A stretch of DNA of 64,000 bases from Spirochaetia bacterium (GCA_017446885.1 JAFSOR010000027.1:38954-102953), one strand, 5' to 3'; shown: positions 23,680 to 44,733, numbered from the stretch's first letter. The notes: generated by a model from the letters alone, not told the origin. Translations and numbers: made by a program.

Positions 23680-26034
23680 CTAGAAGCCGCGCTGCCAGTT
23701 GCCGCGGGTTATGCGTCCTGCGGCCGATTTAGCACGTTCTGCCATACCGCGGTCGCCACCAAAGTAGTCAAAGATAGCCAGTTTATCGTCAGAGCTTAAG
23801 TGCATGAAAGGAAGGGCACGGAAGTCCAGCAGGAAGCTGTCGGCCGATGTCTGGCTTACCGCCTCGGGGATATAGAGGAGAGCGTCGTTGAACACCCGGT
23901 TTATGTAGCCGGGGCTTTTTACTATATGGAACGGAATCTCCTTCTCGTCGTAGAAAGTCTCAGAACCGCTGCATGCTCTGCACTGCTCTGTAAAGCGGTT
24001 ACGGCCGCTCCGGCATCGGCCGGCGGAAGCTAAAAGGCACTGTCTGGTTGTCATCATAGTTATGGGGCCGAACACCTGCAGGAACAGCTTGAAACCTGCC
24101 GGGGCAGAAATCTGGGAAAGCTGATCACGGTTAAGCTCCGGGGAGATGAATGCTCCAGAAGCATAACTAAGTTCGTTGTATGCTTTTAAGGCATAACTGT
24201 TCGTGCTGTTCAGCATAGGGCCTGCAATCCATGAAATGCCCCGGCGGGCTGCCTCAAGGCCAAGCCCCACGTTATCGGAAACTATCATGGAAGGCTGGGT
24301 ATTCAGAAGTGCAAGATATTCGGGCACGGCAGAATCTTCGACAAAAGCCGGAATCCATGGGTATATGTTATCCCCCAGTCTGACCTTGCAACCGGGGAAC
24401 CATTCTACGAATACATTTTCGCATCTGCTGGCAAAAAGTTCTGCATCCTCCTGTGTGGAAACAAGAACCGAAAGCGTTTTATGGGTGTGAGACGGATAGA
24501 CAAGGTGCGGTACCTCAAGCTCCGGCGAAGGGGCGAACAGTGCCTCAAGCGCTGTGCGCCGCACCCGGTTAAGCTCCTTAACCGGGAGGAACAGGGGCTC
24601 CTCGAGGCCGTGGCAGGTAAGATTACCCAGGCTATAGAGCTCATCGCCTGTCTTCTGGAACTGGGTGCGGATGGCCTCCTCCGAGAGCCCCCTGTTCTGC
24701 GCCGGCTCAAGCGGGGCCTCGCTGTGAACTGTGGCCTTACGGCCGTTAAAGCTGAACACAGCCTTAAGAGGCTCGCCCCGGGATGCAAACACCTCGGCGT
24801 CAAAGAAAGCTGGAACAGGCTGCAATTCAACCAGTTTTTGAGCCAAGGTCTTAAGCCGGGCTGGCTGGGGTAGGAGCGCCACAATCTGCCCCTTAAGAAT
24901 CTTGCCGTGGAGCAGGTTCTCTATCATCACGTGATAGAGTCCTTTCCCCAGTATCTTCTGCACTATGGCACTGCATATAAAGCTGTTTTCCGGGGTGTAG
25001 ATGCTTATCCTGCTCCCCTCTTCTATATCTACACCGTTCTGCTGGACAGCAAGCTCCTGCCTGTCTGCTGTGTACGAAACCACTGTGCCAGCCTGTACCA
25101 TGGACTGATCCAACGGGGATTCAACGAACATATCAGGGCTGATGCAGCTGTCGAAGTAGCCGGTTGAAAAGCCTCTGTTGAACACCTGGCTCACATCATC
25201 GCCTGCTTCCAGACTGTCATTGTCCAAGGCATGGCGGTAGGCTGAGACTGTGGTATAGACATAGCCGTAGTTCTTTATACGTCCCTCTATCTTGAGGGCA
25301 TCGGCACCCAGCTCCTTTATGCGGTCCAGATTGGGCAGGGCGTTGTTGTCCTTGAGGCTGAAGAAATAGCTTTTCTCGCCGTGTGGAGCAAGGCTGTATC
25401 GCCGCCTGCAGGGCTGGAGGCATTTTCCACGGTTTCCAGCCTGTGATGATATGAAAGAGCTCATGTAGCAGATACCAGAGCAGGAGATGCAGTAGGCACC
25501 GTGTACAAAAATCTCGGTCTTGATTCCTTTTCTCTTTGTGTATGCGATGATAGGCTCAAGTTCCTCGGCCGAAAGCTCCCGGGCAAAGTTCACATTCTTT
25601 ATCCCAAGCTTTTCCAAAAAGTCCACCTGCAGGCAGTTGTGGGTTGTCATCTGGGTGGAGGCGTGGAGCTCAAGACCGGGAAGATATTGATGGAGCACAT
25701 AGGCAAGGCCTGCATCCTGCACTATCAGGGCATCGGCCCCTGCACCTGAGATTTCGGATGCGCACTGGACTGCCTCATAGAGTTCTGAATCGGTAAGGAG
25801 CGTGTTCATTGTCACATAGATTTTTGTACTGTGGGCATGGGCTATGGAGACTATCTCTTTAAGCTCCTCAAGCCCCAGGTTTGAGGCACGCTCCCGGGCG
25901 TTGAACTTTTTGAGTCCCATGTATACAGCATCTGCCCCAGCCAATATGGCAGCTTTGGCACAGTCGTAGTCGCCGGCCGGGGCAAGCAGTTCAGGCTTTC
26001 TCCTTTCCATACTATCAGAATAAAAGAATTTCAT
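23680..26034 (-). CDS. U32-family peptidase (long form with a C-terminal extension)
   Basis: 784 aa. N-terminal ELLAPAGDYDCAKAAILAGADAVYMG and a Cys-rich segment typical of U32. Confidence 0.85.
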   Translation of the reverse strand: MKFFYSDSMERRKPELLAPAGDYDCAKAAILAGADAVYMGLKKFNARERASNLGLEELKEIVSIAHAHSTKIYVTMNTLLTDSELYEAVQCASEISGAGADALIVQDAGLAYVLHQYLPGLELHASTQMTTHNCLQVDFLEKLGIKNVNFARELSAEELEPIIAYTKRKGIKTEIFVHGAYCISCSGICYMSSFISSQAGNRGKCLQPCRRRYSLAPHGEKSYFFSLKDNNALPNLDRIKELGADALKIEGRIKNYGYVYTTVSAYRHALDNDSLEAGDDVSQVFNRGFSTGYFDSCISPDMFVESPLDQSMVQAGTVVSYTADRQELAVQQNGVDIEEGSRISIYTPENSFICSAIVQKILGKGLYHVMIENLLHGKILKGQIVALLPQPARLKTLAQKLVELQPVPAFFDAEVFASRGEPLKAVFSFNGRKATVHSEAPLEPAQNRGLSEEAIRTQFQKTGDELYSLGNLTCHGLEEPLFLPVKELNRVRRTALEALFAPSPELEVPHLVYPSHTHKTLSVLVSTQEDAELFASRCENVFVEWFPGCKVRLGDNIYPWIPAFVEDSAVPEYLALLNTQPSMIVSDNVGLGLEAARRGISWIAGPMLNSTNSYALKAYNELSYASGAFISPELNRDQLSQISAPAGFKLFLQVFGPITMMTTRQCLLASAGRCRSGRNRFTEQCRACSGSETFYDEKEIPFHIVKSPGYINRVFNDALLYIPEAVSQTSADSFLLDFRALPFMHLSSDDKLAIFDYFGGDRGMAERAKSAAGRITRGNWQRGF

Positions 26035-37761: not shown

Positions 37762-39054
37762 TTAACAGTCTAAACTGTTCTCATCCAGCAAAAAATCTAT
37801 AAGTCCGATACGTGAAATACCATTATCATCTATCCAGCTCTTGCCATAGGATTTTGATATTACAATTTTTTTAAAAGAATCTTTTATTTTTGTTAACGGT
37901 CTCAATTCGGTTTCGGACTTCTTGGCATCATCCATTGACAGTGATGATTGTATATAGTATTTTCTGATACCTTTTCTGGCAATGAAATCAATTTCGCAGT
38001 TATTCTGTGTCCTCTTTCCGTTATCATCTATTTCCCGCAGCGGAACAACCCCAACATCCACCAAGTATCCTCTGGTTATCAATTCATTGTAAATCATGTT
38101 TTCCATTATATGTGACTCTTCCTGCTGCCGTAACCCTAGACGTACATTCCGAAGGCCGATATCTGTGCAATAATATTTTGATGGATATTCAAAATACTTT
38201 TTGCCTTTAATATCATATCTGACAGCTTCGCTGAACAAAAAACTTTCTGTCAAATAGTTTAAATACTTACTGACAGTCTCAGAATCGATATTCACATTCT
38301 TAGTGCTTTTTATAGTTCTAGCAATTTTGCTGGCATTTGTAAGTGAACCTACCGCAGAACAAAGTACGCTTACCAAATCATGAAGAACACCTGGTAACGA
38401 TATATTATACCGTTCCTCTATATCCTTGAAATAAATCTCATCAAAAAGGTTTGCAAGATAATCATATTTAGCGGTATCCGAGTTAATACTCAATAAATGA
38501 GGCATTCCTCCGAACATAGAATATTCATTATAGGCATCAAGCTTATCTTTTTTACTGGCATTATAATATTCGCTGAAAGATAAAGGATAAACCTGAATCA
38601 CATCACCTCTGCCACGGAACTCTGTAGAGATATCTTTAGAGAGCATCTTGGAGTTGCTTCCTGTCACATACACATCCACATTCTTCAAATGAAGCAATCC
38701 ATTCAAAACGCTGTATAACCTTACAGGTTCATCTTTATTCATAAGTTCTTTCTTAGATATAGCATATTGTATCTCATCAAGAAGAATATAGTATTTAGCC
38801 CTAGGATCAGTTATCTTTTCTCTTAAATATTCTGAAAGCTTATTGGGGTCTCTATACAGAGCATTAAGATCAGAATCCAAGGCGACCGATATGATTTGAT
38901 ATGGCGCAACCCCTGATTCAATAAGATAATTCTGAAAAAGATCAAGCAAAAGAGTACTTTTTCCGCACCGTCGAATACCAGTAATAACTTTAATCTGACC
39001 GTTCCAGCCCCTATCTATCAGTGCTTTCAGGTATTTATCACGAGATACTATCAT
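37762..39054 (-). CDS. AAA+ ATPase of the COG1373 type (AAA_14 plus DUF4143)
   Basis: Start is likely at MIVSRDKYLKALI. Walker A GIRRCGKST, Walker B ILLDEIQ, and a C-terminal EIDFIA nuclease-like motif. Confidence 0.8.
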   Translation of the reverse strand: MIVSRDKYLKALIDRGWNGQIKVITGIRRCGKSTLLLDLFQNYLIESGVAPYQIISVALDSDLNALYRDPNKLSEYLREKITDPRAKYYILLDEIQYAISKKELMNKDEPVRLYSVLNGLLHLKNVDVYVTGSNSKMLSKDISTEFRGRGDVIQVYPLSFSEYYNASKKDKLDAYNEYSMFGGMPHLLSINSDTAKYDYLANLFDEIYFKDIEERYNISLPGVLHDLVSVLCSAVGSLTNASKIARTIKSTKNVNIDSETVSKYLNYLTESFLFSEAVRYDIKGKKYFEYPSKYYCTDIGLRNVRLGLRQQEESHIMENMIYNELITRGYLVDVGVVPLREIDDNGKRTQNNCEIDFIARKGIRKYYIQSSLSMDDAKKSETELRPLTKIKDSFKKIVISKSYGKSWIDDNGISRIGLIDFLLDENSLDC

Positions 39055-39151
39055 TTTGCCTCTCTTATCGGAAGTTACTGCCAAATACCATTAACTTCCG
39101 AGATAAATATATCAAATCGGCCGATAAAAATCAATACTCTATCACATATAA

Positions 39152-39183
39152 TAAAAAACCCCGGCTACAGGCACAACCGGGGG
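39152..39183 (-). terminator. Rho-independent terminator after the 96-aa gene
   Basis: Minus strand: CCCCGG-ttgtgcctgtag-CCGGGG followed by T6. Confidence 0.6.
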
Positions 39184-39208: not shown

Positions 39209-39499
39209 TCATCTTTCCTTGCAGCCGAAAATACCAGTCAAGAGGCCACCCACAAAGCTTAGTGCAGTAAGCCCTCCTACAACTGCAAGACCTTTTTTCC
39301 AGGCATCTGGGTCCTCATGGATTTCAATCTCATCGGATTCTTCATCTTCATTTTCTTCTGCGCAAACCTCATCCTCCTCTGAGATTTGCTCTTCCATTTC
39401 TGCAATCATTTTTTCGTACCTTTCATTAAGTTCGGCAGTTTTTGCAAGCTTTTCCTCAAACTCTTTCATCAATTCTTCTGGATTCTTTTTTTCGTCCAT
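39209..39499 (-). CDS. acidic, C-terminally membrane-anchored small protein
   Basis: 96 aa. E/D-rich helical N-terminus and a C-terminal TM helix (GLAVVGGLTALSFVGGLLTGIFG). AAAGGAG SD. It has its own terminator. Confidence 0.55.
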   Translation of the reverse strand: MDEKKNPEELMKEFEEKLAKTAELNERYEKMIAEMEEQISEEDEVCAEENEDEESDEIEIHEDPDAWKKGLAVVGGLTALSFVGGLLTGIFGCKER

Positions 39500-39542
39500 T
39501 TTTTACTCCTTTAATTCTTGATGATTCAAATCTACCCTGCCT

Positions 39543-39565
39543 ACTCCGCCACCTGATGTCAGAGT
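39543..39565. promoter_or_regulatory. 23-bp imperfect palindrome, copy 3 (operator candidate)
   Basis: actccgccacctgatgtcagagt, 44 nt upstream of the 96-aa gene start. Confidence 0.55.
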
Positions 39566-39599
39566 GCAAAAAAAGTTAAAAAACTTGTTTAGCAATCTA

Positions 39600-39815
39600 T
39601 GCCAGCAATAGTACGCTCCAGCAGACCGCCAAAACCTCAGGCAGATAACAAACAAGCAATCTGCTGGCAGCAATAAGGCACACCCGCTCGGTAGGTGCGT
39701 TCCCTTCGGGCCGCAATACCGACGGGCATGCCTTTTGCTGCCATTCAGTTACCGCTTTCACCTGTCTGAGGTTTTGCGGCCAGCTTCCGCCTAATCGAGG
39801 GAGCATTTGCTGGCA
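39600..39815 (+). ncRNA. roughly 216-nt rod-like structured RNA candidate
   Basis: Nested helices: 39600-08/39807-15 (9 bp), 39615-19/39800-04, 39626-44/39762-79 (18 bp, one bulge, one G-U), 39661-63/39746-48, 39665-73/39735-43 (9 bp), 39675-80/39729-34, 39683-93/39717-26, and a UUCG-type tip. There is a 16 x 13 nt central bubble. The only track ORF here (69 aa, minus strand) has no SD or family signal. Confidence 0.45.
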
Positions 39816-39904
39816 GTGTAAGCATTTACAAAGTTTTTCATATTATTTGCATTTTGTGGGGCAAACTTTGAAGCAAAATTGATTTTTTTTGTGTTAGTAA
39901 CAGT
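39804..39904 (+). repeat. intergenic repeat, copy B (partner at 6031..6119)
   Basis: It has the same three conserved blocks as copy A. Its 5' end overlaps the 3' arm of the RNA candidate. Confidence 0.7.
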
Positions 39905-39962
39905 GCAAGGGGACAATCACCTTGACATTATAGGTTTTATCCTATATTTTAAAGGAGGAAAT

Positions 39963-40319
39963 ATTCCGAACTTCAAGGTAGATTTCTATGAGACAGCAAA
40001 TGGGAAAAGGCCAGCAGAAGAATTTCTGATAAGCCTTGACAGAAAAATGCGAACAAAGATGCTCAGAATGATTGTAATTCTGAGCGAAAACGGAAATGAG
40101 CTTCGGGAACCTTATTCTAAGTTTATTTCGGACGGTATTCATGAGCTAAGAGCAAAAGTTGGATCCGATATATCGCGTATCTTATATTTCTTTATGATTG
40201 GACAACGCATAATTCTGACTAATGGATTTATCAAGAAAACTCAGAAAACACCAAGAGGTGAGTTAAAGAAAGCAATAAAATACCGAGCCGATTATTTAAG
40301 GAGATGGAGGATAATATGA
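39963..40319 (+). CDS. higB: HigB/RelE-superfamily toxin (Gp49-like, DUF891 type)
   Basis: KVDFYETANGKRPAEEFLISL...IHELRAKVGSDISRILYFF...ILTNGFIKKTQKTP is the typical family pattern. The start is uncertain: ATT at 39963 lies 4 nt after GGAGG, and the track TTG at 39879 would add 28 non-family residues. Confidence 0.75.
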   Translation: MPNFKVDFYETANGKRPAEEFLISLDRKMRTKMLRMIVILSENGNELREPYSKFISDGIHELRAKVGSDISRILYFFMIGQRIILTNGFIKKTQKTPRGELKKAIKYRADYLRRWRII

Positions 40320-40603
40320 GTACTAGTTTTGATGATTTCTTAAAGGAACAGTTGAAGGATCCTGAAATAAAAAAAGAATGGGATGCTCTCCAGCCAGAAA
40401 TGGCTATTATCCAAGCCATCATAGATGCAAGACATGATTCTGGCCTGACTCAGAAAGAACTCTCTGAACGTACTGGAATAGCCCAAGGAGATATAAGCAA
40501 GCTGGAGAAAGGCAATGCAAATCCATCAATCCGAACACTTCAAAGATTAGCTGCAGGAATGGGAAAAATTCTAAGAATAGAATTTGTAACTGCAAGTTTA
40601 TAA
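40316..40603 (+). CDS. higA: HigA-type antitoxin (XRE-family HTH)
   Basis: ATGA overlap with the toxin stop. HTH segment SGLTQKELSERTGIAQGDISKLEKGNANPSIRTLQRLA. Confidence 0.85.
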   Translation: MSTSFDDFLKEQLKDPEIKKEWDALQPEMAIIQAIIDARHDSGLTQKELSERTGIAQGDISKLEKGNANPSIRTLQRLAAGMGKILRIEFVTASL

Positions 40604-40629
40604 TCAGTAACCCCGTGAAGTCTTTCGTC

Positions 40630-40785
40630 ATGAGGAACGACGAGGAGGAGCTTGCCGACAACCTGCAGTTCATATTCATGCAGCTTCCGCTTCTGGCCGT
40701 GGATGAGGATGAGGCTAAGAACTTGCCTGTAGATATGATAGTTGAAATCACAGGACTCACTCCCGAGCAGGTGGCGGCTTTGTAG
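40630..40785 (+). pseudogene. remnant of an Rpn/YhgA-like PD-(D/E)XK nuclease (putative-transposase family)
   Basis: My translation gives the 51-aa ORF MRNDEEELADNLQFIFMQLPLLAVDEDEAKNLPVDMIVEITGLTPEQVAAL. This joins an hIFLELPKF-like block directly to the family-typical C-terminal I-x-x-ITGL-x-x-E-x-h-x-x-L tail, so the nuclease core is missing. Confidence 0.35.
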
Positions 40786-40948
40786 CCTCTTAGAAATCCA
40801 ACACCCTGGCAGGTTATAACCAGTAGCCTGCCGGGGTATTATGACTTATTTTTGCTCTTTTTCTTTTGACTTCTCTATATCGGCGGGGATTTCCAGATGT
40901 ATAGGGGGAAGCCCTCGCTTCTTAAGCTCGATCTGTGTCTTAGTTTCT

Positions 40949-42382
40949 TTATTGAACATATTGTCCTTTCCTTTTAGATGCCCGGGCAATACCCTTATCT
41001 ACAATGCGCTTGAGGGCAGAGATATCGGGACCATAGCCTGTGCTCAGTTCATCCAGCTTGCCGGAACTTAAAAGCTCATCCAGAACCGGCTGAAGCCGGG
41101 CCAGAATCTCTTTTTCCACATTCTCCTTTGACTTCTGCTCCTTATATGCTATCAGCGGCACATTATCCTTAAGCAGCATGACAAAAGTATTGTACTCGGC
41201 AAAGACATCCAGACGGTCCAGACATTCAAAGAATCTTTTAAGCGGAACATCTTCCTGCATCGATGCCAGCACCTTGGTCTCTTTGCCGTTCTTCTCCTGG
41301 GTACACACATAGAGCAGGGTCCGCCCCACATTGTGGAAACGGTTGAATATTAGGATGCTCTTCTCCGATTCTTCCTCATCAAAGATCAGGCAGCAGTAAC
41401 TTATATTCCGGTTTTCCTCAATACCAGATGTAGGAATCAACATCTCCCTGGATAGATATTTCTGTTCCTCATGGTCCCCCTCTCGGAACTGGAGACTGAA
41501 ACCGTCGCCGCGGAGCTGCAGCTCGCCAAGTTCGCTTACAAACTTCGCATGCCTCAGCGCACTCCTATTCCACAGAACATAGTACCACCGGTCCAGAAGA
41601 TGATTGATTAGAGTCTGGTCTCCAATGATGTAATCTATACCTTTTCCAGCCATGCCTTCTACTGGTTTAACATCATTGCTCTGCCACCTGGTGTCATTCA
41701 TATCAAAATAGTTGTGCCAGTCAAAGCCTGCCGGAACTGTAAAACTGCGCCGAAGCACCTTGGAATCACTCATCTTGGACAGGGCAAAAAGCCTGATTTT
41801 TTTGGACTGGGTCTGCACCACCGCATACCAGTTGCCCTTGTCGCTCACTACATGGAGTGGGAAAATTATATGCTTATCGCCCTTATACTGGCAGGAAAGC
41901 ACCTGATGACTCCTCAGGCTCTGGAAGACATCGGAGAACACCTTGGGATCCACAGGCTCTGAAGGATGGGGAATGCAGCCGACCCCCTCCTGCATCTGGG
42001 AAAAATCCTCCATGGCCTGAGGACCAAAGCTTGATATAATCTTATGGAAAGCTGATTTAAGCTGAGCCTCCAGCGGAGTGTTGCGGTATTCTTCCAGCAT
42101 CCTGCTCAATAGGGCCATACCGAAAAGCTCCCCCTGGTTGATGCTCAAGTCCTCGATAAAGAAAGAGTTCTCGGTATAGTAGTAGCCATGATGTTTCCTG
42201 TCGTATTCGATGGGAGCGTTGTAGAAATTACGCATCTCGTCGATATCCCGGCTTATGGTGCGCTCCCCCACCTCCAGCATCTCTGCAAGCTGCTTTGTGT
42301 TGGGATATGATCCTTTGCGTATCTCTGCGTCTATTAAGTGTATGCGCCGTAATACTACTTTCTCAAGCTGTGCTCTGGACAT
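40949..42382 (-). CDS. wHTH plus WYL-domain transcriptional regulator with a long C-terminal extension
   Basis: 477 aa. HTH segment YPNTKQLAEMLEVGERTISRDIDEMRN, then APIEYDRKHHGYYY, then a WYL-like core (VLSCQYKGDKHIIFPLHVVSDKGNWYAVV...IRLFALSKM). About 200 further residues have no motif that I recognise. Confidence 0.8.
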   Translation of the reverse strand: MSRAQLEKVVLRRIHLIDAEIRKGSYPNTKQLAEMLEVGERTISRDIDEMRNFYNAPIEYDRKHHGYYYTENSFFIEDLSINQGELFGMALLSRMLEEYRNTPLEAQLKSAFHKIISSFGPQAMEDFSQMQEGVGCIPHPSEPVDPKVFSDVFQSLRSHQVLSCQYKGDKHIIFPLHVVSDKGNWYAVVQTQSKKIRLFALSKMSDSKVLRRSFTVPAGFDWHNYFDMNDTRWQSNDVKPVEGMAGKGIDYIIGDQTLINHLLDRWYYVLWNRSALRHAKFVSELGELQLRGDGFSLQFREGDHEEQKYLSREMLIPTSGIEENRNISYCCLIFDEEESEKSILIFNRFHNVGRTLLYVCTQEKNGKETKVLASMQEDVPLKRFFECLDRLDVFAEYNTFVMLLKDNVPLIAYKEQKSKENVEKEILARLQPVLDELLSSGKLDELSTGYGPDISALKRIVDKGIARASKRKGQYVQ

Positions 42383-42391
42383 AACTATATC

Positions 42392-42802
42392 CTATTTATT
42401 TAAGTCAACATCTTTTGGTTCAGTCGCCTCTGCCACATGATACTTGGAAGTAAACATCATTACAAACCGAGTAACCATACCTGCAATAATCTTTAAACAT
42501 TCACCGACGCATAATGAATATGCTATCGAAATAAAAGGATTGAACATATTCATGAATAATGCTGCAGGTACAATCAAGCACAGGACTCCTGTCAATGCAT
42601 ATCTGTATTTCACCATTTTATTAAACGAGATGCATTTTTTTATTTCCTTTTCACTGACAGGCTTATTCTTGGGATCAAATAAAAATCTGCCTTTCTTCAA
42701 TGATTTATATATATTGAATGCATATCCAAAAAACTTTGAAGCCACATACCCGAACATAACACATACAGTTCCATACAGCAAATACAAACCTAAATCACTC
42801 AA
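42392..42802 (-). CDS. small polytopic membrane protein (3-4 TM), TTG start
   Basis: 136 aa. AAAGGAG SD 9 nt before the TTG. It lies 9 nt upstream of the WYL regulator gene on the same strand. Confidence 0.55.
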   Translation of the reverse strand: MSDLGLYLLYGTVCVMFGYVASKFFGYAFNIYKSLKKGRFLFDPKNKPVSEKEIKKCISFNKMVKYRYALTGVLCLIVPAALFMNMFNPFISIAYSLCVGECLKIIAGMVTRFVMMFTSKYHVAEATEPKDVDLNK

Positions 42803-42841
42803 AACTTTGCTCTCCTTTAATTATTGTACTTTGACACCCGC

Positions 42842-42864
42842 ACTCTGTCATCTAGTGGCAGAGT
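42842..42864. promoter_or_regulatory. 23-bp palindrome, copy 2 (operator candidate)
   Basis: actctgtcatctagtggcagagt, 40 nt upstream of the 136-aa gene start. Confidence 0.55.
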
Positions 42865-42919
42865 AAAAAATTTTCAAAACTTTTCATGCAGGTGGCGACA
42901 CTGTAGACAGGGTTATAAC

Positions 42920-44047
42920 TCAAGGATTTAATCGACTAAGCAAAAAAGAGCGACAAATATCAACCATCTGCCGCCTGCTGCCATTAGCCCTGCAGTAATC
43001 TTCTGAATCCAACAGACGAACAATTTGTTTATCAAAAACATCATCTAAAAAATCATTCTGCTGAAAGCACCAACCATTATACTCAACAATATTATGCCAA
43101 AAAACTTTTCCGCCAAGTGTAGGAGGGTCAATATTAAATTCTGCCTGTATTTTTTCTAAATAATCAGGATTATTGGACACTATCTCTATAGTTCTCTGCA
43201 ATACGGCCTTGTCATCCATGGCGTTTATTTCCCTTGCTAAGGTTTCCTCTTGAGAATATTTCAATCCACTACATAAAGTCTTCAGAAGCGGTGCATAGCG
43301 GTTTTTGCAATCATAATATCCTAATTGCATACGTCTTTTTGCACCTTCAGGAGAAAAATCTAAAAGGCCTACAGGGTTACCCCCAAGATCCTCTGATGGA
43401 AGTATCATTATTATATTCATACCTGAATTTGAAAAATCTTTATGATTTTTTCTATCAAGATTAATAACTAAAGCATCAGTACATCCCTCATCGCAGAGAG
43501 GTTTTATCGGCATATTATCACCCTTGCCAAACCAGGCACCGTCATAATAATTATGTCCAAAAATATTTTCTACTTGGAATATTCCTGGAAGGGCACTTGT
43601 AGCACATAATAACTGTTTAATAATATCAATTTTTTGCTTATTCAGACAGAAGTATTCAACCTCTTCATAATCTTTGTTATAGCAGGCTACATAAATCTTT
43701 CTCATGTGTGAAGAAAACTTATGAAAATCTACATATTCTTCCATGATTTCAATCAGCCCGGTTCTGCTGAACAAAGCCCAATTACGGTTTTCGAAAGATA
43801 TAAAATCGAGAATATTATCTTCCACACGGGTAGTCCATACCTTTTTAGCAACTTCAAAACCACAAAGGCTCAAAAGCACTGCATTCAAACCACCTACGGA
43901 TGTCCCTGATAAAACAGAAATTTTTTTCGTCAGACCTATCTCTTCCAGATACTTCCAAACGCCTAGTCCATAGCTGCCTCTTCCACCACCGCCGGAAAAG
44001 ACCAGCCCTATTTTATGCTTAGAAAACAATTTATCAAATATACCCAA
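42920..44047 (-). CDS. patatin-like phospholipase with an unrecognised C-terminal domain of about 90 aa
   Basis: 375 aa. TTG start 5 nt after GGAGGG. Oxyanion motif SGGGGRG, nucleophile elbow GTSVG, catalytic Asp in YYDGAWF. Confidence 0.85.
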   Translation of the reverse strand: MGIFDKLFSKHKIGLVFSGGGGRGSYGLGVWKYLEEIGLTKKISVLSGTSVGGLNAVLLSLCGFEVAKKVWTTRVEDNILDFISFENRNWALFSRTGLIEIMEEYVDFHKFSSHMRKIYVACYNKDYEEVEYFCLNKQKIDIIKQLLCATSALPGIFQVENIFGHNYYDGAWFGKGDNMPIKPLCDEGCTDALVINLDRKNHKDFSNSGMNIIMILPSEDLGGNPVGLLDFSPEGAKRRMQLGYYDCKNRYAPLLKTLCSGLKYSQEETLAREINAMDDKAVLQRTIEIVSNNPDYLEKIQAEFNIDPPTLGGKVFWHNIVEYNGWCFQQNDFLDDVFDKQIVRLLDSEDYCRANGSRRQMVDICRSFLLSRLNP

Positions 44048-44171
44048 GCATTCCCTCCTCTCGAGTTTTGCAGGTTACATATAGTAATACACTTTTAAAC
44101 AAGTGTCTTAAATGTCGTGATATTGAGGCCCTAAAATGTATTAATCAAATAAGAATACTTTATTACTGTGA

Positions 44172-44456
44172 TTAATCTTTCACAATTTTCTTGAAGAAAT
44201 CCATTATTGCAGTTTCACCACCCCAGGCATGTCTTACATCTTCTGGATCAAGAATACGGCAATGGCCTGTGACCGAATTCCGCTGGACCCGCCACCCATT
44301 ATACTCGGCTAAATCATTCCACCAGACTTCTCCTCCCATAGTTGGAAACTTAATATTGGGCATTAAGCCCAACTCCATGGCTCCCATATTCTGAAGCAAC
44401 TCTGGATGCTTTGATAAAAGCTCCAATCCTTTTTCAAGTAAAACATCTACTTCCAT
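44172..44456 (-). CDS. 94-aa protein homologous to the C-terminal domain of the downstream patatin protein
   Basis: AAAGGAG SD. FPTMGGEVWWNDLAEYNGWRVQRN...CRILDPEDVRHAWG aligns with PPTLGGKVFWHNIVEYNGWCFQQN...VRLLDSEDYCRANG in the patatin protein. Confidence 0.6.
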   Translation of the reverse strand: MEVDVLLEKGLELLSKHPELLQNMGAMELGLMPNIKFPTMGGEVWWNDLAEYNGWRVQRNSVTGHCRILDPEDVRHAWGGETAIMDFFKKIVKD

Positions 44457-44492
44457 TTTTCACTCCTTTCGTTATCGTATTTTGCCACCAGT

Positions 44493-44515
44493 ACTCTGCC
44501 ATCTGATGTCATAGT
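44493..44515. promoter_or_regulatory. 23-bp palindrome, copy 1 (operator candidate)
   Basis: actctgccatctgatgtcatagt, 37 nt upstream of the 94-aa gene start. Confidence 0.55.
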
Positions 44516-44607: not shown

Positions 44608-44733
44608 ATGTTAACGATACTCCGTCAGGGCTGGACTCAGTCGCAGCTGGCAATACAGGCAAACAGTTCAAACGGCATGATAGGCAACATTGAAGCTGGA
44701 AAAGCAAAACCAACCCATGCAAAGCAAAGTTGA
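44608..44733 (+). pseudogene. truncated XRE-family HTH ORF (41 aa)
   Basis: My translation gives MLTILRQGWTQSQLAIQANSSNGMIGNIEAGKAKPTHAKQS. This matches the XRE HTH core (GxTQxxLA...iSxiExGkxxP) but stops right after helix 3-4. Confidence 0.35.

Follow-up and report, generated by a model that had tools for sequence, protein, structure and literature searches.

A 23-bp near-palindrome as putative WYL-dependent promoter element in a variable island of an uncultured spirochaete

In a stretch of 64,000 nucleotides from a Spirochaetia bacterium (GCA_017446885.1, JAFSOR010000027.1:38954-102953, hereafter the window), an uncultured rumen/gut organism represented by a metagenome-assembled genome (MAG), we found three copies of a 23-bp near-palindrome, ACTCTG-CA-N5-TG-CAGAGT, each in front of a minus-strand transcription unit of an island that also encodes a WYL-domain regulator. 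The best explanation, to which we assign a probability of about 0.55, is that the copies are integral and directional parts of WYL-dependent promoters that carry no -35 hexamer, with the WYL site acting as a "-26 element". How defence islands are silenced and switched on is an active question. To our knowledge, WYL regulators are the most widespread candidates for the control of such islands, those linked to defence have so far been described as repressors, and sigma adaptation that replaces the -35 has been described only for actinobacterial regulators of the DNA-damage response.

Distribution of the element in the window

The three copies are located at 39543-39565 (actccgccacctgatgtcagagt on the window strand), 42842-42864 (actctgtcatctagtggcagagt) and 44493-44515 (actctgccatctgatgtcatagt), exactly where the initial annotation of this DNA had placed them. 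All of them belong to minus-strand genes, and on this gene strand they read ACTCTGACATCAGGTGGCGGAGT (copy 1, score 36.1 with a position weight matrix, PWM), ACTCTGCCACTAGATGACAGAGT (copy 2) and ACTATGACATCAGATGGCAGAGT (copy 3, identical across the strain-level loci L013-L022), with the consensus ACTCTGACAyyAGGTGGCrGAsT. Copy 1 is the putative promoter element of a gene for a 96-aa acidic, tail-anchored membrane protein, copy 2 that of an operon for a 136-aa transmembrane (TM) protein and the WYL regulator, and copy 3 that of a unit for a 94-aa protein and a patatin-like phospholipase, the same genes that had been described behind the copies before. The gaps between element and start codon are 43, 39 and 36 nt, respectively; the 44, 40 and 37 nt given in the annotation result from another way of counting.

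The copies are not a random accumulation. A search with the pattern ACTCTGNCANCTNNTGNCAGAGT, allowing up to three mismatches, matched these three places only in the 64 kb; the number expected by chance from dinucleotide shuffles is 0.05, and none of 100 shuffles equalled three. Other intergenic copies were found neither by this pattern search nor by a PWM scan of the window, and the sole further related sequence in the PWM scan is weaker and lies within the WYL coding region at 41678-41700 (see below). We also considered the near-perfect palindrome TCTCTATCATCACGTGATAGAGT at 24918-24940 as a further copy and rejected it, as it lies inside a 784-aa minus-strand open reading frame (ORF), scores only 14 with the PWM and is probably unrelated.

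Two of the copies share more than the palindrome. The annotation had assigned a common sequence of roughly 20 nt to copies 1 and 2; the pair that shares it is the one at 42842 and 44493, and 39543 does not carry the block (GGTGKCAAARTAC). The block follows copies 2 and 3 on their 3' side (42826-42841 and 44477-44492, minus strand), holds a third half-site-like GGTGKCA at 14 nt from the proximal half-site and includes a TGn extended -10 motif ahead of CAAAGT or CAAAAT. It is absent from all other instances of the element and therefore probably represents a local promoter duplication.

Co-occurrence of the element with WYL regulators

We found the element in every locus fetched for a homologue of the WYL protein, both for long forms resembling the window protein, in all four lineages (66-68% identity; L001-L012 are the loci fetched for these long-form homologues), and for short canonical WYL forms with 45-54% identity. 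It always lies on the same strand as the regulator gene, at a distance of 0.3-9.5 kb. In long-form loci its orientation is that of the downstream gene despite differing cargo, which comprises homologues of both the acidic and the TM protein as well as ankyrin-repeat proteins and a tubulin-like protein. In short-form loci it stands 5-27 nt past the WYL stop codon, apparently as promoter of the next operon, and extra copies are present ahead of small genes up to 9.5 kb away. The 96-aa acidic protein is the most widely conserved member of the putative regulon, with orthologous pairs of element and gene in L001 (8383), L007 (7903), L034 (4727) and L039 (11272), and the L001 orthologue of the 136-aa TM gene (6933) is likewise preceded by an element (6867).

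Scans for the DNA sequence itself led back to the same family. In species-representative genomes of 596 Gb in total, an 18-mer core gave only 7 matches; one of them (L025) is genuine, and the other six lie in unrelated high-GC phyla and lack the flanking architecture. A degenerate pattern retrieved five loci from metagenome contigs, four of them genuine and three of these four with a WYL gene, while two scans of viral contigs gave 0 and 2 matches, neither of which reached PWM 20 for the full element. The annotation had raised the concern that the motif could be a generic genome-wide repeat; with copies confined to the island in the window and a single genuine additional site in 596 Gb, we reject this. 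The genuine site belongs to another Spirochaetia MAG (region 1608-1986 of L025) and reads ACCCTGACATCAGGTGGCGGAGT, followed by 8 nt and TATATT. It is located directly 3' of an intrinsic terminator and ahead of an acidic 104-aa ORF, upstream of an rpsF-ssb-rpsR-rplI-dnaB cluster.

The DNA-binding part of the regulators varies together with the element. The helix-turn-helix (HTH) and wing LAEMLEVGERTISRDIDEMRNFYNAPIEYD are kept at 79-95% identity in the winged HTH (wHTH) domains of regulators that share the element, even in P0005 and P0007, where the remainder of the protein is only 45-49% identical. In the more distant P0008 and P0012 the residues GE before RTISRD, adjoining the recognition helix, are changed to SV or GV and the wing IEYD is changed to IAFD, and the elements found with them have drifted as well, reading ACTTTGACATTCTTTGGCAGACT and AyTCTGCCGTTAGGTGGCAGATA. 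Throughout the aligned sequences the element is thus unchanged where the wHTH is unchanged and drifting where the wHTH has changed. The earlier proposal that the three units form one putative regulon tied to the WYL protein is borne out by the presence of the element in all loci of WYL homologues, its co-variation with the wHTH and its recovery by scans of DNA alone, and we consider the element very probably a binding site of the WYL-family regulator within a promoter.

A different protein could in principle read the element, with the WYL regulator as mere passenger; candidates would be the XRE-family protein encoded beside short WYL forms, a HigA-type antitoxin, a chromosomal regulator or an alternative sigma factor. 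It would agree with this that no WYL gene was found in the 8 kb examined for the genuine L025 site, and that L039 and L041 have an intact XRE gene that diverges from the WYL gene, with a remnant of XRE beside site 3 in the window. However, L001, L007, L009 and L037 have no XRE, that of the window is truncated, and HigBA does not occur in any relative outside the window species; the elements nevertheless persist, for which reason we discarded XRE and HigA as binders. Of the neighbours, only the WYL gene is constant, and its wHTH varies in step with the element; the half-site geometry is that of published WYL sites and the TAnnnT hexamer described below is of housekeeping type. We regard a reader other than the WYL protein as improbable.

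Promoter architecture

The statistics on architecture are based on 12 groups, each represented by one promoter per non-orthologous downstream gene. Aligned in gene orientation, the sequences show an A/T-rich tract (often AAAAAGTTGAAAnnTTTTTT), the element, 8 unconserved nucleotides, a TAnnnT hexamer, 9-29 nt containing a Shine-Dalgarno sequence, and the start codon. Exactly 8 nt past the element, TAnnnT is found in 10 and xAnnnT in all 12 of these promoters (P~1e-14, or ~9e-14 once corrected for 8 offsets), and the orientation of the element relative to the downstream gene is fixed in 12/12. The palindrome itself is directional: at positions 7/17 an A stands opposite a G, non-complementary in 11 of the 12 groups, and the outer positions are only loosely complementary. 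A -35 hexamer is lacking, with the best match to TTGACA at spacers of 16-19 nt reaching no more than 3/6, in contrast to ordinary promoters of the lineage such as those of tRNA-Leu (TTGACA-18-TATAGT), tRNA-Gly (TTGACA-17-TATAAA) and, in L025, rpsF (TTGACT-18-TATAAA).

If the hexamer is taken as the -10 and set at -12 to -7, a promoter of this kind would consist of an UP-like A/T tract at about -60 to -44, the element at -43 to -21, 8 nt, TAnnnT and a 16-23-nt leader with AAGGAG before the start codon. The proximal half-site TGGCrGAsT would then extend from -29 to -21, covering the region of about -23 to -28, so that it would occupy the "-26" position in place of a -35. The inferred -10 without -35 and the half-site at a fixed distance before the hexamer, here 8 nt, correspond to the hallmarks of promoters of the PafBC/SiwR type. 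At copy 1 the inferred -10 is TAGATT at 39529-39534 (minus strand), 8 nt 3' of the element.

Several other assignments were tried and rejected. If the upstream TTGAAA were the -35, CAGGTG would have to serve as -10, and a MerR-like operator in the spacer, with CTGACA as -35, would need a spacer of 22 nt. Recognition by sigma-54 or another alternative sigma factor was dismissed by eye, since the TGGC-N-GC spacing is unlike TGGCAC-N5-TTGCW and the hexamer is of housekeeping type.

The position of an inverted repeat at the junctions of swappable cargo modules would also suit roles other than that of an operator, such as an RNA hairpin in the 5' untranslated region, a mobile repeat of the repetitive extragenic palindrome (REP) or miniature inverted-repeat transposable element (MITE) kind, or a recombination site at cassette borders. 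We rejected an RNA hairpin, as the three regions are predicted to fold no better than shuffled sequences (z = 0.0, +0.8 and -0.7) and compensatory pairing was not found; the outer arms do not co-vary for pairing and the mismatch at 7/17 is conserved. Given the inferred -10, the element would not even be transcribed. The scarcity of further matches in 596 Gb speaks against a dispersed repeat, and the fixed distance to the -10 and the Shine-Dalgarno sequence argues for promoter function. Non-operator roles of this kind are hardly credible.

The WYL regulator

The regulator is a 477-aa protein encoded at 40949-42382 on the minus strand, with a wHTH, a three-helix bundle and a WYL domain in aa 1 to ~228, followed by an orphan C-terminal half. 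The WYL domain is recognised by Pfam (PF13280, 31 bits at a cut-off of 21.8) and by PADLOC (3.5e-25), and its beta-strands at aa 160-213 are modelled by AlphaFold2 (AF2) with a predicted local distance difference test (pLDDT) score of 80-92. The wHTH matches Pfam HTH_11 at E=5.5e-5, slightly under the curated cut-off, and its helices and wing at aa 3-69 are modelled with pLDDT 80-91; T42, R45 and residues of the wing are invariant among 35 homologues. In the model as a whole, aa 10-220 reach a pLDDT of 80-92 and aa 228-477 one of 25-55, and the order of domains resembles that of DriD.

Only three other clusters of full-length homologues exist, with 66-68% identity, and a query of species genomes with the single WYL protein returned no homologue loci; the family is rare and known from metagenome assemblies only. 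The next relatives are canonical wHTH-WYL-WCX proteins of spirochaetes with ~335 aa that match the N-terminal half alone. The WCX domain (PF25583) was not found in the long forms P0001-P0004 but is present in all short relatives. For the orphan half (~250 aa, aa 228-477) we found no relatives outside the clade except for one stand-alone ORF, P0193, with 195 aa and 62% identity to the module. Upstream of this ORF, on a 3-kb contig (L044, 455-1190), lie a short ORF and a copy of the element (ACTATGACACTACACGGCAGACT, followed by 8 nt and TATATT); the same contig carries another element at 2310, ahead of a tubulin-like gene.

In the alignment, the arginines of the beta4/beta5 loop at the DriD positions are replaced in three of the four long-form lineages: the loop reads IRLFALSKM or VQLFALSQI in long forms, PRVFAFSRM in short forms and PRSWRLDRM in DriD. 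The long-form regulator may therefore sense something other than single-stranded DNA (ssDNA). The segment around the WYL signature is KGNWYAVVQ in the window protein and RGSWYVIA or KGNWYVIG in short relatives, with no flanking arginines, and the RWHVR signature was found neither in the window protein nor in the short relatives, the family reading NWYA or SWYV. A profile of 35 family sequences matched PafBC best among structures in the PDB (6sj9, 4e-20), followed by DriD (~1e-16) and PafB and PafC (4e-13 and 5e-12); the same profile gave 1e-10, 4e-6 and 0.02 for CapW and 2e-9 and 4e-4 for BrxR. By these E-values the closest characterised relatives of the family are not BrxR and CapW.

The element-like sequence inside the regulator gene (41678-41700, minus strand, TGAATGACACCAGGTGGCAGAGC) encodes DTRWQS, where the WYL domain passes into the C-terminal half. 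It is found in every long-form lineage (L001 5110, L007 3849, L009 1505, L030 6406) with PWM scores of 17-24, its position at aa 229-236 marks the exact end of homology to short WYL proteins, and it is followed by 8 nt, TA(A/T)ACC and, after 10 nt, an in-frame ATG that is conserved. Extra selection on this copy was considered and discarded; three of three codons are identical at a background of 40%, which is not significant, and coding explains the conservation. The sequence may serve as a promoter within the gene or in autoregulation, or simply result from coding. Expression of the regulator may have further inputs: at L007 2600-2640, an operon of a 140-aa protein and WYL lies not behind the 23-bp element but behind a different palindrome, GTACACTTG-a-CACAAGTGTA, that adjoins a TTGACA, which suggests a second input on regulator expression. 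The 140-aa protein is not homologous to the 136-aa TM protein of the window.

Activation versus repression

Binding by the WYL protein, the positions of transcription start sites (TSSs) and the sign of regulation are what we infer from comparison of sequences. An activator that contacts the polymerase predicts a fixed spacing of 8 nt, a fixed orientation and the lack of a -35, none of which a steric repressor would require, and we lean somewhat towards activation. In the proposed mechanism, a WYL dimer would bind both half-sites with their core GACA-N5-TGGC and, once switched by a signal, would recruit the housekeeping sigma-70 holoenzyme to these promoters or adapt it to them, in the manner of PafBC and SiwR. 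All three units, that of the patatin, that of the acidic membrane protein and the operon of the 136-aa TM protein and the regulator, would thereby be switched on together.

Several observations weigh against this model. All -10 assignments made here are purely comparative, and the hexamers that sites 2 and 3 offer in this frame, at +9, are weak (CAAAGT at 42828-42833 and CAAAAT at 44479-44484, both on the minus strand and both with TGn before them). At site 2 a conventional promoter exists 5 nt further on, ATGACA-17-TACAAT with 10/12 matches (-10 at 42823-42828), which is also the choice of a sigma70 scan, and at site 3 the corresponding alternative, likewise 5 nt further on, is ATGGCA-17-TACGAT (-10 at 44474-44479). 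The UP-like tract together with a -10 could allow transcription independent of an activator. In short-WYL loci we found no terminator between the WYL gene and the element, an arrangement that would also suit a roadblock repressor. The L025 element has no WYL gene nearby, as mentioned above, and as the long forms have no WCX and mostly no loop arginines, dimerisation and ligand sensing in the manner of DriD or PafBC cannot be assumed. Finally, among WYL regulators associated with defence, those characterised to date, BrxR and CapW, are repressors (PMC9122601, PMC11662680).

The initial annotation had proposed promoters with a -35 inside the proximal half-site and a spacer of 17 nt. This fits sites 2 and 3 and, as said, agrees with the sigma70 scan at site 2. 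It does not fit site 1, where the -10 is TAGATT and not TTGAAT, nor does it agree with the comparative frame, in which 10 of 12 promoters have the -10 at 8 nt past the element and no -35.

The main competing model is that of a repressor of the BrxR/CapW type, in which a WYL dimer on the element would block RNA polymerase in unstressed cells and a signal, e.g. ssDNA, would derepress the three units; the half-site would double as -35 at sites 2 and 3, and site 2 would mediate negative autoregulation. The precedents from defence islands bind inverted repeats with a 5-bp spacer and repress (PMC9122601, PMC11662680), the good sigma70 promoter at site 2 overlaps the proximal half-site in such a way that bound WYL would repress it, the regulator's own operon lies behind an element in the window, the terminator-free position right after the WYL stop codon in short-WYL loci is compatible with a roadblock, and the UP-like A/T tracts could sustain basal transcription. 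On the other hand, the RWHVR signature is absent and profile similarity favours PafBC/DriD by at least seven orders of magnitude of E-value. The element is located upstream of the inferred -10, whereas the BrxR operator lies downstream of it and the CapW operator over it, although in the comparative frame the element does cover the position a -35 would have, and the alternative at site 2 uses the half-site as such. Moreover, 8-nt spacing and orientation are strictly fixed in 12 non-orthologous promoters with no -35 in any of them, and in relatives the WYL gene mostly has no element in front. The analogy to BrxR and CapW had been drawn in the annotation as well. Of this analogy, the co-localisation with defence genes and the inverted repeat of a dimer type hold, while the missing RWHVR and the weaker profile match do not agree with it, nor does the operator position in the comparative frame. 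We consider repression unlikely, and prefer -35-less promoters dependent on the WYL regulator.

Gene content of the island

The island extends from about 37.7 to 44.7 kb, has a GC content of 0.38-0.45 compared to ~0.49, and is flanked by lysS and a thioesterase gene on one side and a glycosyltransferase gene on the other. At the lysS-proximal edge lies the gene of an AAA_14/DUF4143 ATPase (37762-39084, minus strand), which matches the PADLOC candidate system PDC-S01 (E=7e-112); no element was found upstream of this gene. The 96-aa acidic protein (39209-39499, minus strand) has a C-terminal TM helix, no Pfam match and homologues in L001, L034 and L039, and its monocistronic unit is closed by an intrinsic-terminator-like hairpin with T-run at 39159-39182 (minus strand; 10 pairs, 6 of them GC, then TTTTTT). 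The 136-aa TM protein (42392-42802, minus strand, TTG start) is encoded by the first gene of the regulator operon, with a gap of 9 nt to the gene of the 477-aa HTH-WYL protein.

In the third unit, the 375-aa patatin-like phospholipase (42920-44047, minus strand) matches Pfam Patatin at 2e-21 and, weakly, a phospholipase effector of PADLOC, and is the putative effector of the island. The 94-aa protein (44172-44456, minus strand) shares 33% identity (E=9e-15) with aa 277-363 in the C-terminal region of the patatin and represents a stand-alone paralogue of this region, with the common motif PTxGGxVxWxxxxEYNGW; neither the protein nor the region matched a Pfam or PADLOC model. The 94-aa protein may act as partner or decoy of the regulatory domain of the effector.

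Between the 96-aa unit and the WYL gene, on the opposite strand, we found a HigB(Gp49)/HigA-type toxin-antitoxin pair (39879-40603, plus strand), which is present only in the window species' form of the island. The other island edge carries a truncated XRE-family ORF of 41 aa (44608-44733, plus strand), which over a length of 30 aa is 87% identical to the intact XRE that L039 encodes divergently from a short WYL gene. This ORF represents the remnant of an ancestral module of XRE, WYL, element and cargo, and a short WYL gene seems to have been lost by deletion between it and copy 3. Given this ORF and the HigA-like HTH_3 antitoxin at 40304-40603, HTH proteins in the island are not limited to the WYL regulator.

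The products of the window regulon would be the patatin phospholipase, the small paralogue of its C-terminal region, two small membrane proteins and the regulator. Defence-type genes co-localise with them in the form of the patatin and the PDC-S01-like ATPase, and in relatives the PADLOC candidates PDC-M09A/B, PDC-M40B (1e-69), BnzB and IetA are found downstream of the element, next to many proteins without match. The function of the regulon is most likely inducible anti-phage or stress defence, judging from gene neighbourhood only. In related species (L001-L008, L034, L037-L039) the WYL/element islands occupy one chromosomal hotspot of recombination, from ornithine carbamoyltransferase (OTCase)/ClpX to HAD/PheS/PheT, with exchange of cargo that includes ankyrin, tubulin-like, RHS-repeat, PDDEXK_2, PDC-M09, PDC-M40B and BnzB genes. 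Exchange of cassettes might rely on the repeated promoter element as a source of homology.

Comparison with characterised WYL systems

Promoters of PafBC have no -35 but a canonical -10 together with an element specific to PafBC at -23 to -28, and the protein inserts between sigma region 4 and the DNA (PMC8635444). The canonical -10, the missing -35 and the factor-specific element at fixed distance are common to these PafBC / RecA-NDp promoters and the ones described here, and PafBC is also the best match to the family profile. In contrast, PafBC is a heterodimer or fusion with ~150 DNA-damage genes and a non-palindromic motif (PMC6789036). The near-palindrome found here implies a homodimer, and the regulon is small and local to the island.

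SiwR of Mycobacterium smegmatis, which controls the dinS operon, is a homodimeric WYL activator whose site, an imperfect palindrome of 19 bp, lies between -35 and -10 with an essential GGA at -26 (PMC10693628). In both cases a wHTH-WYL gene lies beside the target operon, and an imperfect palindrome, of 19 bp for SiwR and 23 bp in our case, stands between the positions of -35 and -10; a purine-GA triplet of the same region is essential for SiwR (GGA at about -26) and conserved here (rGA at -25 to -23). SiwR differs in being actinobacterial, with one known target, an operon of DinB-like genes, and with a canonical WCX and ssDNA-binding arginines, whereas here we deal with a spirochaete, several promoters per island, defence-type cargo, a window regulator without WCX and a putative mode of activation.

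The site of DriD from Caulobacter is ACGACA-GTTAC-TGTCGT, and its native didA site ends with TGGCG (PMC10853764); DdaA of Moraxellaceae recognises CGWCA-N5-TGWCG about 50 bp upstream of the TSS, which is not the arrangement of PafBC (PMC12392091). Their GACA-N5-TGTC geometry resembles the CTGACA-N5-TGGCrG found here, the domain order of wHTH, three-helix bundle and WYL is the same, and DdaA too controls defence genes; both have a WCX, however, and the position of the DdaA site is different. BrxR is a repressor that binds 11-bp inverted repeats with a 5-bp spacer (R-BOX, 11+5+11) downstream of the -10 (PMC9122601), and repressors of the CapW/BrxR type carry RWHVR and are released from the DNA by ssDNA (PMC11662680). 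They share with the present system the location of WYL regulators in variable defence islands and the binding of dimers to inverted repeats with a 5-bp spacer, and differ in having RWHVR in place of WYL, an operator downstream of or over the -10, and release by ssDNA. As far as the sequences tell, the element combines the GACA-N5-TGkC half-site geometry of the WYL family with the position and -35-less context of PafBC/SiwR promoters.

Implications

A WYL regulator with its cognate inverted repeat is a known combination; replacement of the -35 outside Actinobacteria would be new, if confirmed. As a tentative idea, which we hold to be somewhat less than even in likelihood, the spirochaete WYL clade might be a homodimeric, palindrome-reading version of actinobacterial sigma adaptation, in which a -26-type element replaces the -35 and activates interchangeable anti-phage cargo behind a portable 23-bp promoter cassette, with long forms that have swapped the WCX for the orphan module of ~250 aa, mostly lost the ssDNA-binding arginines and sense a different signal. 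The three sites of the window and their one regulator make up a compact, testable system. If the proposed model is true, activation of the sigma-adaptation type would be extended to another phylum and to immunity. The element followed by 8 nt and TAnnnT would furthermore serve as a sequence tag for new cargo genes in rumen and gut spirochaetes, including genes without Pfam or PADLOC match such as those of the acidic tail-anchored protein, the pair of 94-aa protein and patatin, and the tubulin-like and ankyrin proteins.

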